From a virus (lineage: Duplodnaviria; Heunggongvirae; Uroviricota; Caudoviricetes), in the IMG/VR virus record IMGVR_UViG_2630968766_000008, positions 1 through 38,909 of that record: a stretch of DNA of 38,909 nt, one strand, 5' to 3'. Shown here piece by piece: positions 3,954-13,867 of this stretch; position 1 is the stretch's first letter; each line of letters begins with the position of its first letter. Made by a program: the position numbers and the translations under genes. The notes under the pieces are model-generated. The model worked only from the letters and a program-made list of their open reading frames with translations. It was not told where the DNA came from and searched no databases.

Positions 3954-4145
3954 TTAAAATCCTGCCGGGATTTCGTTATTATCCTGGTGAATAACTTTAT
4001 CGACCGGATAACAGTTGCCTGGAATTTTCTGTTCGGTTGCTGCTGCCATACATTCCTGCATTGTTCTGTGAACACTGACTGCAATATCAACTGGCTCTCC
4101 GGAAACAAGAAAAACCGTCAGAATAAGTGCAAATACTGGATTCAT
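3954..4145 (-). CDS. ydfD: YdfD-like small lysis protein (63 aa) with N-terminal hydrophobic helix
   Basis: 63-aa ORF (MNPVFALILTVFLVSG...) whose ATG overlaps the dicB stop as ATGA, the same arrangement as dicB-ydfD in the E. coli Qin prophage; size matches YdfD from memory. Confidence 0.6.
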   Translation of the reverse strand: MNPVFALILTVFLVSGEPVDIAVSVHRTMQECMAAATEQKIPGNCYPVDKVIHQDNNEIPAGF

Positions 4146-4330
4146 TGTGCACATCCTTTTGGCATCAGACGTAAACGGGCCAGCATTGAAACAATGCATA
4201 CTTTATTTAATAACTCCCGTTCGTGTTTTCTTTTGTTAATGGCATCTTCAGTAAATACAGGATTACTGATAGTGACACCAATTTCAAAACAACCTTCAGA
4301 CGTATTAACGTTTGGTAATAACGTTTTCAT
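4142..4330 (-). CDS. dicB: Cell division inhibitor DicB (MinC-activating)
   Basis: 62-aa ORF MKTLLPNVNTSEGCFEIGVTISNPVFTEDAINKRKHERELLNKVCIVSMLARLRLMPKGCAQ, nearly identical to my recollection of E. coli K-12 DicB; GAGGG Shine-Dalgarno 8 nt upstream; immediately downstream of the dicF sRNA. Confidence 0.8.
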   Translation of the reverse strand: MKTLLPNVNTSEGCFEIGVTISNPVFTEDAINKRKHERELLNKVCIVSMLARLRLMPKGCAQ

Positions 4331-4499
4331 TATCGCGCCCTCAACAATGAGTTTTGTGATGCGGTGCCTGGTGCCTCCAGGTGACGTTAACCAGTTAACA
4401 ATTAACGCCGGATACAGAGAATCCACCCATAACACTGTTTTTGGTTTTAACTGTTCCGCGTGCGCTTAGCCGCATTCACCGCATCACAAAATTCACTTT

Positions 4500-4557
4500 A
4501 AAAAGGGCGGCAGAGCAGTCACGGAGTAAAACTGATACCGCCAAACGTCACCAGAAA
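4500..4557 (-). ncRNA. dicF: DicF small RNA (ftsZ translational inhibitor) including its intrinsic terminator
   Basis: Reverse complement of 4500-4557 reads TTTCTGGTGACGTTTGGCGGTATCAGTTTTACTCCGTGACTGCTCTGCCGCCCTTTTT, which matches the DicF sequence as I recall it, ending in a GC-rich hairpin (GGCGG...CCGCC) plus U-run. Lies between ydfC and dicB as in Qin. Confidence 0.75.
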
Positions 4558-4898: not shown

Positions 4899-5117
4899 TT
4901 AACGCGGGTATGTAATCATTCTGGCAATGCTTAATGCCGCTGCTTTTTCCAGCCTGGTGATATCCTGCTCCAGAGCGGACAGATTTTCAGCCTGCTTAGC
5001 CCTGGCTTCATTGGCCCATTTCAGATCCTGCGCTGCATTAATTTTCTGGCGCATCCACTCATAAAGTTCATCATCGGTATAGTCTGGCGCGATGATGACG
5101 GGTTCTCGTTTCTGCAT
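4899..5117 (-). CDS. ydfC: YdfC-like hypothetical protein (72 aa) of the dicB operon
   Basis: 72-aa ORF with strong AGGAG Shine-Dalgarno 5-6 nt upstream of ATG; size and position (upstream of dicF) match Qin ydfC. Confidence 0.55.
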   Translation of the reverse strand: MQKREPVIIAPDYTDDELYEWMRQKINAAQDLKWANEARAKQAENLSALEQDITRLEKAAALSIARMITYPR

Positions 5118-5188: not shown

Positions 5189-5545
5189 TTACTCGAGAGG
5201 AAATTGGTTATGAATACAATCAAGTTTTCTTGCCCAGAATGTGGTGGCGAAGTCTTTGACACATCCTTTAAACCGCAGGGCTCTGACAGTTTCGCGGGAG
5301 CCATCTGCAAAAATTGTGGTCACCTTGTAACTGAAGATGAGTCCTCGCAGTTCGATGACGAAATCGTTGACAATATCTTCGGTGCACTCACCAGAGACTT
5401 TCTGAAATAAAGACGCATACCGCTTAGTTACCGCTCTGATAACTCTTACCTGTCCGGCAATGGCGCTGATGTCAATATAAAGCGCCATTGCTGCTTCTTT
5501 GCCGATCCCGTGATGCCTTCCATTCTGATGTTTGACTTCGCCCAC
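5189..5545 (-). CDS. Hypothetical first gene of the leftward dicB operon (position of Qin ydfA/ydfB); start uncertain (GTG 5545 or ATG 5488)
   Basis: Open frame directly downstream of the leftward promoter; AGAGGA 7 nt before GTG. An antisense zinc-ribbon ORF on + (5210-5410) competes with it, so only one of the two is likely real. Confidence 0.3.
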   Translation of the reverse strand: MGEVKHQNGRHHGIGKEAAMALYIDISAIAGQVRVIRAVTKRYASLFQKVSGECTEDIVNDFVIELRGLIFSYKVTTIFADGSRETVRALRFKGCVKDFATTFWARKLDCIHNQFPLE

Positions 5546-5625
5546 TGAGAAATCCTCTGTTTCCCCTTAACGCCGGGTAGCGGAACTGTTTGCTGAGAAC
5601 ACCGTGCGGTGTCTTGATGGGTGGT

Positions 5626-5654
5626 AATTTAGTTTTCTCATGAATGTTGGTCAA
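5626..5654 (-). promoter_or_regulatory. Leftward early promoter (pL / dicB-operon promoter analogue) with operator repeat in the spacer
   Basis: On minus strand: TTGACC (5654-5649) - 17 nt - TAAATT (5631-5626); spacer contains TGAGAAAACT operator-like motif; a second copy TGAGAAAACTCA at 5665-5676. Confidence 0.5.
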
Positions 5655-5738
5655 GTATTTTTAATGAGAAAACTCAATATTTAATGCAAAATAAAGCCAA
5701 TACATTGAAATGTAAGGCTTTAAAATTTGTGAAGGGGG

Positions 5739-6146
5739 TTACTGATGTTTGTTACGTTTGCGAGCTTCTAGTAGCTCGGTGAATAGGCGATTAAAATTCT
5801 CAACGCGGGCACGGAGTTCGCTGATTTGTGCTTGCTGCTCTGATTTTGGAAGTGCGCGATACAATCGCAACATCTCCAACTCATCTTCCGATAAGTCTAA
5901 GGCGCTGTTGAGTGCAACTGGTGGATCTGGTGTTTTATCCTCGTCACCAAACAGTATCCAAGTTGGTGAACATTGCAATACCTCAGCCAGGCGATGCAAA
6001 TTTTGCCCGCGCGGGGCTGTATGGTCGCTTTCCCATAGTGAAATTGATGAGCCAGATACGCCAGCGGCTTTGCTTAAATCGTTTTGACTTAAACCAACCT
6101 GTTTGCGTCTTTCTCTAATTCGTTGACCTAAAGTTTTCTCGTTCAT
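5739..6146 (-). CDS. dicA: DicA-like repressor (XRE-family HTH, C2/cI analogue)
   Basis: 135-aa ORF; N-terminal HTH (QRIRERRKQVGLSQNDLSKAAGVSGSSISLWE) and conserved VLQCSPTWILFGDEDK segment as in E. coli DicA; divergent from Cro-like dicC. Confidence 0.85.
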   Translation of the reverse strand: MNEKTLGQRIRERRKQVGLSQNDLSKAAGVSGSSISLWESDHTAPRGQNLHRLAEVLQCSPTWILFGDEDKTPDPPVALNSALDLSEDELEMLRLYRALPKSEQQAQISELRARVENFNRLFTELLEARKRNKHQ

Positions 6147-6167
6147 ATTTAGATATCTTAATAACCC

Positions 6168-6209
6168 TTGACTTGAGATTCCTTGAGTGATTACTATTGA
6201 GAAAACTCA
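6168..6209 (+). promoter_or_regulatory. Rightward early promoter (pR analogue) with operator TGAGAAAACTCA
   Basis: TTGACT (6168-6173) - 17 nt - TTACTA/TACTAT, followed by palindromic-ended operator TGAGAAAACTCA at 6198-6209, the same 12-mer found twice left of dicA. Confidence 0.45.
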
Positions 6210-6223
6210 ACTTTGGAGGGGTG

Positions 6224-6451
6224 ATGTTTAAATCAGACGTAATTAATTTTTATGGGACGAAAGCCAAAGTAGCGAAAGCTGCTGGTGTTGATCCATCTGC
6301 TGTTTCTCAATGGGGGGAACTGGTTCCTGAAGGTCGCGCGATGCGCCTGCAAGAGGCATCCGGCGGGGAACTTCAGTACGACCCCAAAGTTTATGACGAA
6401 TATCGTAAGGCAAAGCGGGCGGGGCGGTTGAACAATGAAAATCACCCCTGA
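6224..6451 (+). CDS. dicC: DicC-like Cro-type regulator
   Basis: 75-aa ORF from ATG 6224 (GGAGG Shine-Dalgarno 5 nt upstream); sequence ...VPEGRAMRLQEASGGELQYDPKVYDEYRKAKRAGRL... resembles E. coli DicC; divergent to dicA. Confidence 0.75.
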   Translation: MFKSDVINFYGTKAKVAKAAGVDPSAVSQWGELVPEGRAMRLQEASGGELQYDPKVYDEYRKAKRAGRLNNENHP

Positions 6452-6986
6452 ACAGGTTTGTGAGGCTCTGGATGCCTGGGTATGTCGACCAGGAATGACA
6501 CAGGAGCAGGCGACGATATTAATCACGGAAGCATTCTGGGCTCTGAAAGAACGCCCGAACATCGATGTTCAACGCGTCACGTTTAATGATGGCGAGGTTG
6601 ATCAACGGGCGCTGGGCGTTAACCGGGTGAAGATATTCGAACGCTGGAAAGCTATCGACACCAGGGATAAGCGGGAAAAATTCACGGCGCTGATTCCGGC
6701 AATTATGGAGGCTATCCGGATCAGCGATTTCAGGTTGTATTGTGAAATTACTGACGGAAAAAGCATTACGTACATGATCGCCGGGTTAAACAAAGAATAT
6801 GGCGATGTGGTGGAGTCCGGGCTGCTTTTTGCGGATCCATCTGTTGTGGAACGTGAGACTGACGAGCTTATAGAAAAAGCTATTGCTTTCAAGCATGCGT
6901 ATCGTCAGCAATATCAATATTACTTTGCAGATAAACAAATGTCTGCCAGGGGTTCGTATGAGTATCGATGCACTACGATGGGCTAA
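6435..6986 (+). CDS. Hypothetical protein, possibly YdaT-family (occupies the cII position)
   Basis: 183-aa ORF directly after the Cro-like gene, overlapping it by 17 nt; assignment to the YdaT family is from positional analogy and vague motif memory only. Confidence 0.4.
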   Translation: MKITPEQVCEALDAWVCRPGMTQEQATILITEAFWALKERPNIDVQRVTFNDGEVDQRALGVNRVKIFERWKAIDTRDKREKFTALIPAIMEAIRISDFRLYCEITDGKSITYMIAGLNKEYGDVVESGLLFADPSVVERETDELIEKAIAFKHAYRQQYQYYFADKQMSARGSYEYRCTTMG

Positions 6987-7998
6987 AAAGGTGAAAACCG
7001 GCAGTTCATCCAGTAAGTCTGTATTGACCTGGCTTGCTGATATGTGCGGTGCCGATTTGTGTGCATACCCGTCTGTATCTGCACTGGCAGAAGTAACGGA
7101 ACTGAACAAAAAGACTGTGCAGGACAGCTTACGACACCTGATGGAGATTGGGTTAATTGTTGATACCGGTGAGAGAAAAGGCAGAACAAAGCAAATTGTG
7201 GTGTACCGACTTATCGGTGTAGAAGAAAGTGTTGCCGAGCCTGAATACACCCAAAAACGGGAGTCTTTAAAGGTGGGTAAAATTGGTGCTGTTAATAAAA
7301 ACAGTACCGAAAATGGTTATGTTTCAGCACAAAACAGACCCAAAAACGGAACTCTTAGCTGCATGGAAAATAACCAAAGACACCCAAATTTTCCATCAAA
7401 GACACCCAAAAACGGATCACGGAACCCAAAGGAACCCAAAGATCTAAACCCCACACATAACGCACGCGAGAGTGCTCCGACCAGTGAGCAGGAAGTTTTA
7501 TCGTTACAGGCAGCACCCCTTGTATTCCTGGATGGCCTGAGCGAACCCATCGGAAAATTTCCGATGACCGATAGCTGGTATCCGTCACGGGATTTTCGAC
7601 GACGGGCTGCGTTGTGGGGGATGGCTTTGCCGGAGACAGAATTTACACCTGCTGAACTTGCCGCCTTCCGGGACTACTGGGCAGCGGAGGGGAAAGTGTT
7701 TACGCAGATTCAGTGGGAGCAGAAATTCGCCCGTCACGTAAATCACGTCAGGGCGCAGGTTAAACCAGTCAGCAAGGGGGGGAGCCATGCAGCAGCACCA
7801 GGTGGCACCGCATCACGGGCAGTTCAGGAAATTCGGGCAGCACGTGAGCAGTGGGAACGTGAAAACGGATTTATCAGCGACGGAAACGGCGTGGAAGCTG
7901 TGGGAACTCATGGGGGATGTTTATTCGAACCGCTGGACCCAGAAGAACGGGGTCGCACCTTCGAAGCTCTGGATTGCACAGATTGGCGCGATGACTGA
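6958..7998 (+). CDS. Replication initiation protein (O-like N-terminal wHTH, DnaT-like C-terminal domain)
   Basis: ORF 6883-7998; likely start ATG 6958 (MSIDALRWAKKV...). N-terminus looks like a helix-turn-helix replication protein; C-terminal TDSWYPS...FTPAELAAFRDYW segment resembles the DnaT/primosomal domain fused to phage replication proteins. Confidence 0.6.
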   Translation: MSIDALRWAKKVKTGSSSSKSVLTWLADMCGADLCAYPSVSALAEVTELNKKTVQDSLRHLMEIGLIVDTGERKGRTKQIVVYRLIGVEESVAEPEYTQKRESLKVGKIGAVNKNSTENGYVSAQNRPKNGTLSCMENNQRHPNFPSKTPKNGSRNPKEPKDLNPTHNARESAPTSEQEVLSLQAAPLVFLDGLSEPIGKFPMTDSWYPSRDFRRRAALWGMALPETEFTPAELAAFRDYWAAEGKVFTQIQWEQKFARHVNHVRAQVKPVSKGGSHAAAPGGTASRAVQEIRAAREQWERENGFISDGNGVEAVGTHGGCLFEPLDPEERGRTFEALDCTDWRDD

Positions 7999-10551: not shown

Positions 10552-10736
10552 TTATGACCACAATTACCAGAGAACGACTGCTGGAAATGTTTGCGTGAAA
10601 AGGAGAGTTAAGTAAAATCGCCGCGGGTGCTTGAGGCTATCTGCCTCGGGCATGAACACCAACGGCAGATAGAGAAAAGCCCCAGTTAACATTACGCGTC
10701 CGGCAAGACGCTTAACATTAATCTGAGGCTCAATCT

Positions 10737-10949
10737 ATGAACGGCAAATCTAGGTTAGCCTCTTACGTGCCGAAAGGCAAGGAGAAGCAGGCTATGAAGC
10801 AGCAAAAGGCGATGTTAGTCGCCCTGATCGTCATCTGTATTACCGTCATTGTGACGGCACTGGTAACGAGGAAAGACCTCTGCGAGGTACGAATCCGAAC
10901 CGGCCAGACGGAGGTCGCTGTCTTCACAGCTTACGAACCTGAGGAGTAA
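10737..10949 (+). CDS. mok: Mok-like regulatory reading frame (in-frame N-terminal extension of hok)
   Basis: 70-aa ORF sharing stop with hok, as for mokC/hokC in E. coli K-12 (69/50 aa). Confidence 0.5.
   Translation: MNGKSRLASYVPKGKEKQAMKQQKAMLVALIVICITVIVTALVTRKDLCEVRIRTGQTEVAVFTAYEPEE
10794..10949 (+). CDS. hok: Hok/Gef family type I toxin (membrane-depolarising peptide)
   Basis: 51-aa MKQQKAMLVALIVICITVIVTALVTRKDLCEVRIRTGQTEVAVFTAYEPEE, very close to HokC/Gef; AAGGAGAAG Shine-Dalgarno; followed by strong intrinsic terminator. Confidence 0.85.
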   Translation: MKQQKAMLVALIVICITVIVTALVTRKDLCEVRIRTGQTEVAVFTAYEPEE

Positions 10950-11166: not shown

Positions 11167-11430
11167 TTGATGAAAATCGAAGAATTACGTGAAATTTTTA
11201 GTGAAGATGGCCTCTATACTGTGCGCGTTGAGAATGGCGCTATTGTCAGCCACTGCCGTATTAAATGTTTACAGTCTCAACAAAGGAAGAGTGGAGCTGC
11301 GTTAATTCATTTGGTGGATGGGCTTGTGACGGATGGTTTTATTTTGCGTGCAAATGAATTTGTCACATCGTTGCCGTCTCTGAAAGAAGCTGGGATTAAG
11401 GCTGGTTTTTCTGCTTTTGAAGATGAGTGA
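11167..11430 (+). CDS. Hypothetical small protein (Rem-like by position between hok and DUF968 gene)
   Basis: 87-aa ORF; synteny with Qin (hokD-rem-ydfU-quuQ) suggests a Rem counterpart, but sequence identity not verifiable from memory. Confidence 0.4.
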   Translation: MMKIEELREIFSEDGLYTVRVENGAIVSHCRIKCLQSQQRKSGAALIHLVDGLVTDGFILRANEFVTSLPSLKEAGIKAGFSAFEDE

Positions 11431-13590: not shown

Positions 13591-13620
13591 TTGACCAGAC
13601 ACATTGTCCGGGGCTATATT
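13591..13620 (+). promoter_or_regulatory. Late promoter pR' analogue (Q-modified)
   Basis: TTGACC (13591-13596) - 17/18 nt - TATATT (13615-13620) directly downstream of Q. Confidence 0.5.
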
Positions 13621-13682
13621 CCTCACGCGCCAGCAAAATCTGGCGTCGGGATTAGGAACCCCGGATTGAGACCGCGACAGAT

Positions 13683-13706
13683 ACACGCCGCGAGCGTGTT
13701 TTTTAT
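13683..13706 (+). terminator. tR'-like intrinsic terminator of the short late leader RNA
   Basis: ACACGCCGCGAGCGTGT hairpin followed by TTTTTTATT, ~80 nt downstream of the putative pR'. Confidence 0.5.
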
Positions 13707-13867
13707 TGTCGTATGCACGCGCACATCTGAATTATGGTGGGGCGTATGGGGGAGCTGAAAGGCTCGCCGGTTGGTTTCCCGGTAGTTCCTAACCCTGTAC
13801 GTCTCACCACCCGATGATTAGGAACCTGACGGTGGTGATAGTTTAGAAACCACTAGAGGGCGTCATT

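Follow-up and report, generated by a model that had tools for sequence, protein, structure and literature searches.

A DicA-like repressor gene and its probable 14-bp operators in a Qin/mEp460-like lambdoid prophage

Genes and promoters of the immunity region

The window, by which we mean the whole 38,909-nucleotide stretch of viral DNA analysed here, is an E. coli Qin/mEp460-like lambdoid prophage. Over positions 5400-6500, identity reaches 100% with strain SC516 and about 91% with phages mEp460 and HannyBb; no match to SC516 at a fixed offset extends across the first 12.4 kb of the window. The prophage appears to be more complete than Qin. The following genes and features make up the region, from left to right.

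Left of dicB: ydfD, exo, xis and int
4142-4330, minus strand: dicB, cell-division inhibitor gene (open reading frame with MKTLLPNVNTSEG...; PGAP annotates dicB at the SC516 locus, L001)
4505-4556, minus strand: DicF sRNA (Rfam RF00039, 76.7 bits)
4899-5117, minus strand: ydfC (open reading frame; SC516 annotation)
5626-5654, minus strand: PL-like promoter, counterpart of dicBp (-35 TTGACC at 5654-5649, 17-nt spacer, -10 TAAATT at 5631-5626)
5692-5722, minus strand: terminator-like hairpin, 3' of the dicA stop codon and followed by a U-rich tail (RNA fold)
5739-6146, minus strand: dicA-like repressor gene, 135 aa (HTH_3 N-terminal domain, DicA-type C-terminal half)
6168-6197, plus strand: PR-like promoter, counterpart of dicCp (-35 TTGACT at 6168-6173, 18-nt spacer, -10 TACTAT at 6192-6197)
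6224-6451, plus strand: dicC/cro-like gene, 75 aa (P22_Cro PF14549, E 1.1e-17; Cro/CI family according to PGAP)
Right of dicC: YdaT-like gene, then replication genes
11167-11427, plus strand: Rem-like gene, candidate antirepressor (tblastn with K-12 Rem, 70% identity, E 1.5e-34)

The repressor matches Pfam HTH_3 with an E-value of 1.2e-16, and HTH families are its sole Pfam matches; the same search found neither an S24 peptidase nor a RecA-cleavage domain in the 135-aa protein. Over its whole length it is 56% identical to DicA of E. coli K-12, and its C-terminal motifs are kept in 13 homologues. A gap-free alignment over residues 1-72 links its N-terminal domain to the P22 C2 repressor (PDB 1adr and 2r1j, E 2e-15). 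A consensus scan of positions 5350-6450 returned only two sigma-70-like promoters, the PL-like and the PR-like one. The hairpin at 5692-5722, which sits between dicA on one side and OL2 and PL on the other and is conserved in the haplotypes described below, presumably acts as a terminator. Upstream of dicA itself, there is no Shine-Dalgarno sequence and no good -35 hexamer, in every immunity type that we compared.

Five dyads around the repressor gene

The initial annotation had described three copies of the 12-mer TGAGAAAACTCA flanking the dicA-like gene. A motif search of the window recovered it exactly at two positions on the plus strand, 5665-5676 and 6198-6209. The third copy is not exact: it reads TGAGAAAACTAA on the minus strand at 5629-5640 and matches at 11 of 12 positions, the interval 5631-5640 given for it being the exact 10-nt part of this copy. 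Adding one base on either side turns each of the three copies into a 14-bp dyad, TTGAG-N4-CTCAA. The proposal of TTGAG/CTCAA half-sites around an A-tract proved correct. TTGAG was also the half-site picked in the window by an unbiased de novo search, in which every 5-mer h was scored as h-N4-rc(h) with up to 2 mismatches, in zones extending 100 nt to the right and 150 nt to the left of dicA. This search returned five sites, listed here under lambda-like names.

5628-5641: OL1, TTTAGTTTTCTCAT (minus strand ATGAGAAAACTAAA; plus strand TTTAG-TTTT-CTCAT)
5664-5677: OL2, ATGAGAAAACTCAA, that is ATGAG-AAAA-CTCAA
6148-6161: OR3 candidate, TTTAGATATCTTAA, two mismatches with both half-sites imperfect, centre ATAT
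6173-6186: OR2 candidate, TTGAGATTCCTTGA, two half-site mismatches, centre ATTC
6197-6210: OR1, TTGAGAAAACTCAA, that is TTGAG-AAAA-CTCAA, a perfect dyad

The three sites noted at the outset are thus real, but two more, OR2 and OR3, had been overlooked, and OR3 was also recovered by a palindrome search. Looking for further copies, which had been proposed as a check, yielded these two weaker dyads and no third OL site, none being present between the PL leader (5560) and the dicA stop codon (5738) with 3 mismatches allowed. The 9-mer GAGAAAACT also occurs on the minus strand at 6132-6140, in dicA codons 3-5; we took this fourth copy to be a chance occurrence, because 4 of its 10 half-site positions are mismatched and it is not conserved in the Buttiauxella dicA genes.

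The placement of the dyads relative to the promoters is precise. OR1 overlaps the final T of the PR -10 and spans the predicted transcription start, its 12-mer beginning one base past the -10, while the PL coordinates place OL1, the inverted copy, over the spacer and -10 of PL. Both positions agree with the earlier description of an inverted copy in the leftward spacer and a direct copy just after the rightward -10. The first base of OR2 coincides with the final T of the PR -35, OR3 starts 2 bp away from the dicA ATG, and OL2 lies upstream of the PL -35, so that the OL1/OL2 pair flanks this hexamer. From centre to centre, the sites are spaced by 24 bp (OR1-OR2), 25 bp (OR2-OR3) and 36 bp (OL1-OL2). 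The AAAA centre is common to the three strong sites, OR1, OL1 and OL2, which share an identical asymmetric GAGAAAACT core in both E. coli and Buttiauxella, and OR1 and OL1 have the same orientation relative to their own promoters. Judged by their sequences, OR2 and OR3 are probably weaker than these three. OR3 also contains a -10-like TAAGAT, 7 nt from the dicA ATG, suggesting, by analogy with lambda PRM, that the dicA mRNA may be leaderless.

Conservation, covariation and alternative readings

Conservation was assessed in 84 loci whose repressor is 96-100% identical to that of the window, comprising the window itself, the mEp460 locus (L007), an E. coli locus (L008), two metagenome-assembled contigs (L009 and L010) and IMG/VR viral contigs; they collapse into 48 distinct haplotypes. 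The number of minor-allele haplotypes per column is 0.33 in the operators versus 4.47 in the neighbouring non-coding DNA (Mann-Whitney p = 9e-11), and the comparison with neighbouring non-coding columns gives p = 1e-6 for the three 12-mers alone. The 14-mers and the promoter hexamers are almost fixed, and the variable columns fall at 5619-5624, 5642-5648, 5655-5658, 5663, 5678-5680, 6187, 6193-6195 and 6211-6213. OL1 is near-invariant between hypervariable flanks (5619-5624 and 5642-5648), the conserved block of OL2 is limited by the variable columns 5663 and 5678, and OR1 is almost invariant with hypervariable columns 6195 and 6211-6213 alongside. Since variation begins directly outside the 14-mers, the functional unit is 14 bp and not 12, and the idea of the 12-mer as the unit has to be abandoned. 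OR2 is conserved across haplotypes as well. All 14 columns of OR3 are invariant; this may instead come from the dicA promoter, the start-codon context or a leaderless start.

Comparison with other immunity types showed that the half-site changes together with the recognition helix of the repressor (residues 31-37), as listed below.

Window and mEp460: half-site TTGAG, helix SGSSISL
Buttiauxella L011 and L012: half-site TTGAG, helix SDSSISL (repressor 75-76% identical, flanks diverged)
K-12 and Citrobacter L016: half-site TTAGT/C, helix SHVSVSQ
L003, L005, L017 and L019: half-site TTAGG/A, helix (A/S)HVTISQ
L021: half-site ATAAC, helix SSVSVFK

In all types, the de novo 5-mer search places the type-specific half-sites at the same positions. 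For K-12 its top 5-mer was TGTTA, which represents the same extended sites in an offset register, with TTAGC second at a slightly lower score. A cross-matrix of sites and types gave 4-5 TTGAG-type sites in window-type loci versus 0 in every other type; reciprocally, the window contains no TTAGC-, TTAGG- or TTAGA-type site and two TTAGT matches with 2 mismatches, and L011 contains one TTAG-type match. The OR2 position is occupied by a type-specific dyad elsewhere too, for example TTAGGTTTCTCTAC in L003, and the two OL-type sites lie 36 bp apart in L003, L005 and L016, against 34-35 bp in the rest of the loci scored. Between types, the repressor scaffold is invariant and residues 31-37 of helix 3 change. 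DNA homology with the other types breaks at about 5620/5633 and returns at about 6301/6314, and these breakpoints indicate that the swapped immunity cassette is exactly OL1, OL2, dicA, OR1-3 and the N-terminal HTH of dicC. Because the operators and both HTHs are inherited as one cassette, the covariation cannot assign the sites to DicA as against DicC.

This last point bears on the possibility that the DicC/Cro-like protein, or another phage regulator, is the main or sole reader of the sites, the DicA-like repressor binding elsewhere. Lambdoid Cro proteins and their repressors use common operators (PMC10448788), and the heterologous cassette also takes in the N-terminal HTH of DicC, which varies together with the operators. 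However, the equivalent K-12 operator, Oc, depends on DicA in vivo (PMC3441716), and the 5-4-5 geometry of the dyads fits the operator of P22 C2 (PMC5175364), to which the N-terminal domain of the repressor aligns without gaps. We therefore consider exclusive reading by DicC or another regulator improbable. It is moreover not a true rival, since joint use by both proteins is the expected case, and the DicC/Cro-like protein is likely a second reader of the same operators. An even smaller likelihood attaches to the proposal that the OL1/OL2 inverted repeat is an RNA or DNA hairpin, such as a structure at the 3' end of the dicA transcript or an attenuator. The two arms, 5627-5644 and 5661-5678, are 89% complementary and form an 11-bp stem in the minus-strand RNA, the whole region having a z-score of -4.46; yet two copies of an operator that is itself palindromic will always be complementary. 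The 22-nt loop would enclose the PL -35, no U-tract follows, and a better terminator-like hairpin, that at 5692-5722, lies upstream in the dicA transcript. PL transcripts begin downstream of OL1 and would not include the structure, and OR1 shares the sequence without having a partner arm. We rejected this candidate, which folds but would rarely be transcribed and leaves OR1 unexplained.

The least probable alternative is that the repeats reflect chance, or the similarity of A/T-rich promoter regions, without a specific function. The repeat as such is not rare, as Markov simulations predict about 3.8 pairs of repeated 12-mers within 700 bp in 39 kb, and across the whole window TTGAG-N4-CTCAA with up to 2 mismatches matches 18 times versus 18.95 expected. 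What chance does not account for is the clustering. Five of these 18 loose matches, among them all those with no more than 1 mismatch, lie in a 583-bp stretch around the repressor gene, and a cluster of five was found in 0 of 500 first-order Markov simulations, in which the maximum was 4. Conservation drops sharply where the 14-mers end, the same dyad is kept in Buttiauxella although the flanks have diverged, and the half-sites covary with the immunity type. The chance reading is effectively refuted: the motif repeats are real, and the comparative data remove the remaining doubt.

A heteroimmune relative of the DicA and P22 C2 switches

Taken together, these data make it very probable that the TGAGAAAACTCA 12-mers are the cores of 14-bp operators for the DicA-like, P22-C2-type repressor encoded between them, and the operators probably also serve the divergent DicC/Cro-like protein. 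The OL/OR-like layout proposed at the outset, in which a repressor controls two divergent early promoters, is borne out by the positions of the K-12 counterparts, by the haplotype conservation and by the covariation of half-site and helix. By analogy with characterized switches, a repressor dimer on OR1 would cover PR from the -10 to the start site and block dicC, the ydaT-like gene and the replication genes, while a dimer on OL1 would cover the PL spacer and -10 and block the ydfC-DicF-dicB-ydfD-exo-xis-int operon. OL2, OR2 and OR3 would be auxiliary sites, contributing to cooperative repression, to autoregulation of a weak dicA promoter or to DicC action. As the repressor lacks a RecA-cleavable domain, derepression could proceed through the Rem-like antirepressor (11167-11427) or through a flip of the DicA/DicC bistable switch, as in K-12 (PMC10448788).

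This reading would define, for the immunity type of the window, a likely operator code, TTGAG-N4-CTCAA, and a map of five sites. At least 786 of 5,426 complete E. coli genomes carry this type, as does the viable phage mEp460, and the DicF sRNA and the division inhibitor DicB are under its control. The set of types forms a small natural series, in which changes at recognition-helix residues 32, 33 and 37 can be set against changes in the half-site, and which may help to predict which Qin-like prophages are heteroimmune. A search of the literature with the operator string matched only unrelated eukaryotic papers. To the model of the lambdoid switch itself, the locus adds nothing conceptually new.

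The closest known system is the Qin prophage of E. coli K-12, where DicA acts as the repressor of dicCp and also of dicBp, the dicBF promoter situated immediately downstream of dicA (PMC10448788). Its operator Oc, a 20-bp inverted repeat, TTGTTAGTCATAACTAACAA, overlaps the dicCp -10; DicA needs it to bind in vivo, one A-to-C substitution in an Oc half-site is enough to abolish binding, and the dicC transcription start has been mapped by 5'RACE (PMC3441716). A repressor site for DicA at dicC also emerged from Reg-Seq (PMC7567609). In K-12 sequence, the Oc core TTAGTTATGACTAA lies one base past the dicCp -10, TATCTT, and another dyad, TTAGCCATGACTAA, falls within the dicBp spacer and -10, upstream of ydfA and with a -35 of TTGACC. 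OR1 of the window stands at the position of Oc and OL1 at that of the dicBp dyad, with 5-4-5 geometry in both; the PR -35 is identical, the PL region aligns without gaps to the dicBp region, and Oa of K-12, TTAGCTAATGCTAA, is the positional counterpart of OR3. In the in vivo K-12 assay, Oc alone was bound and Om and Oa, the counterparts of OR2 and OR3, were unbound in isolation (PMC3441716), and the DicA site at dicBp carries a low-evidence rating with its location unknown (PMC7567609); the case for the OL sites, OR2 and OR3 is for these reasons a comparative one. The comparison across types also points to the position at which DicA should bind the K-12 dicB promoter. The likeness extends to the gene order (ydfC-DicF-dicB, PL, dicA, PR, dicC and a ydaT-like gene), to the 135-aa length of the repressor and to the presence of a Rem-like antirepressor gene, Rem being known to derepress dicBp in K-12 (PMC10448788). 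In agreement with the missing Shine-Dalgarno sequence and good -35 in the window, dicA of K-12 has no recognisable promoter, and it is activated by DicA bound at Oc (PMC3441716). By contrast, the half-site is TTGAG in the window versus TTAGT/C in K-12, which has no TTGAG-type sites, the recognition helix is SGSSISL versus SHVSVSQ, and the whole immunity cassette, from about 5620/5633 to 6301/6314, is non-homologous DNA. Because half-site, recognition helix and immunity DNA all differ, the window is heteroimmune to K-12 Qin.

With P22, the window shares the 5-4-5 operator geometry and a Cro partner of the P22_Cro family. The P22 operator consists of two 5-bp half-sites and an A/T-rich, non-contacted 4-bp centre (PMC5175364, PMC4267663); on the operator ATTTAAGATATCTTAAAT, Val33 and Gln37 of C2 make base contacts with the TTAA(G) half-site (PMC5175364), and an A-tract centre gives the highest affinity (PMC4267663). 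The two systems differ in half-site (TTGAG here, TTAAG in P22) and in helix residues 31-37 (SGSSISL here, SNVAISQ in C2). The replacements from C2 to the window include Val33 to Ser, Gln37 to Leu and Asn46 to Arg, and those of the acidic residues E44 by Ala and E48 by Gln. The window repressor is a 135-aa protein without a RecA-cleavable C-terminal domain, as opposed to 216 aa for C2, and its OL comprises two sites 36 bp apart around the -35 instead of three in tandem. An analogy with Arg43 of the 434 repressor was dropped, because BLASTP gave no alignment between that protein and the N-terminal domain, and the Asn46 position of P22, at the mouth of the central minor groove and occupied by Arg46 in the window repressor, was used instead. 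That the operator centre is read unlike that of P22 C2, with an arginine sensing the shape of the narrow A-tract minor groove, seems to us conceivable but unlikely. The asymmetric core shared by the three strong sites, the common orientation of OR1 and OL1, and Arg46 together with the loss of E44 and E48 would hint at it. If it were true, such a readout, combined with a two-site OL clamping the -35 at 36 bp and perhaps with OL-OR looping over about 570 bp by a small repressor that lacks the lambda-type C-terminal domain, would make the switch mechanistically unlike the textbook cases of lambda and P22.

The lambda CI/Cro switch resembles that of the window in its divergent repressor and cro genes, in three OR-type dyads spaced by 24-25 bp, of which OR2 and OR3 are candidates, in a promoter-proximal site that would block PR, and in a repressor gene without a Shine-Dalgarno sequence, possibly leaderless as for PRM. 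It differs in its unrelated repressor C-terminal domain and in its operators of 17 bp, versus 14 bp here; in addition, the window shows just two OL sites, and its induction would use an antirepressor rather than autocleavage. In this last respect, the window recalls, by description, GfoR and GfhR of the Salmonella Gifsy prophages, short non-cleavable lambdoid repressors that are freed by an antirepressor (PMC10448788). We conclude that the switch of the window belongs to the known DicA/P22-C2 repressor-operator family, as a heteroimmune member with a new specificity rather than a new kind of system.

The dicBF transcript and the frames downstream of PL

The leftward promoter-like site PL, counterpart of K-12 dicBp, reads toward ydfC, DicF and dicB. 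The initial ~60 nt of its predicted transcript (5560-5619) are ~95% conserved between heteroimmune types, K-12 included, and contain a small hairpin, ACACC-GTGC-GGTGT, at 5599-5612. This conserved leader, with its hairpin, might act as a nut-like or processing element of dicBF. Further along, between dicB and DicF, we found a perfect 15-nt inverted repeat, TTTTGTGATGCGGTG / CACCGCATCACAAAA, whose arms (4352-4366 and 4477-4491) are separated by 110 nt and which may serve as a structure for processing the dicBF RNA.

Just downstream of PL, two intact ORFs overlap in antisense:

5204-5410, plus strand: zinc-ribbon ORF (CxxC...CxxC) of 68 aa, annotated by PGAP as ECs_2282 family
5189-5545, minus strand: ORF of 118 aa that occupies the place of K-12 ydfA and ydfB and has a plausible ribosome-binding site

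In strain 2011C_4247, which carries another immunity type, a stop codon lies inside the zinc-ribbon frame, and the PGAP annotation is given instead to the minus-strand ORF, 96% identical to the candidate 118-aa ORF of the window.

Replication-gene repeats, hok/sok and candidate antirepressor-related elements

Within the O-like replication gene, ACCCAAAAACGG(A) is present in three direct copies, at 7249, 7338 and 7404, with related repeats at 7375 and 7397 (overall span 7249-7415, plus strand). These repeats are probably origin iterons. Further features were detected on the same strand:

10625-10799, plus strand: sok antisense RNA (Rfam, 107 bits)
11167-11427, plus strand: homologue of Rem, the antirepressor of the K-12 Qin prophage (tblastn, 70% identity), downstream of the hokD/sok locus
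13614-13814, plus strand: isrK Hfq-binding RNA and C4 antisense RNA with its a1/b1 target elements, in tandem (Rfam)

Strain SC516 carries a near-identical prophage, in which PGAP annotates hokD near the position corresponding to sok; taken together, these matches indicate that the window carries a hok/sok toxin-antitoxin locus. In phages P1 and P7, an antisense RNA of the C4 family controls the antirepressor, raising the possibility that this prophage has, in the isrK-C4 tandem, a second module for antirepressor control.

The repressor and the start of its gene

Residues 42-48 of the DicA-like repressor are encoded at 6003-6023 (minus strand). In the related P22 repressor C2, E42, E44, N46 and E48 surround the non-contacted centre of the operator, whereas H42, A44, R46 and Q48 occupy these positions in the window's repressor. 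Arg46 is found together with the strictly conserved AAAA centre of the three strong operator sites (OR1, OL1 and OL2), in both E. coli and Buttiauxella.

At the start of dicA (6146-6161), no Shine-Dalgarno sequence was found in any immunity type compared, and a -10-like TAAGAT (6159-6154, minus strand) lies inside OR3, a weaker candidate operator dyad, 7 nt upstream of the ATG. This arrangement suggests that the dicA mRNA may be leaderless, like the lambda cI mRNA initiated at PRM.
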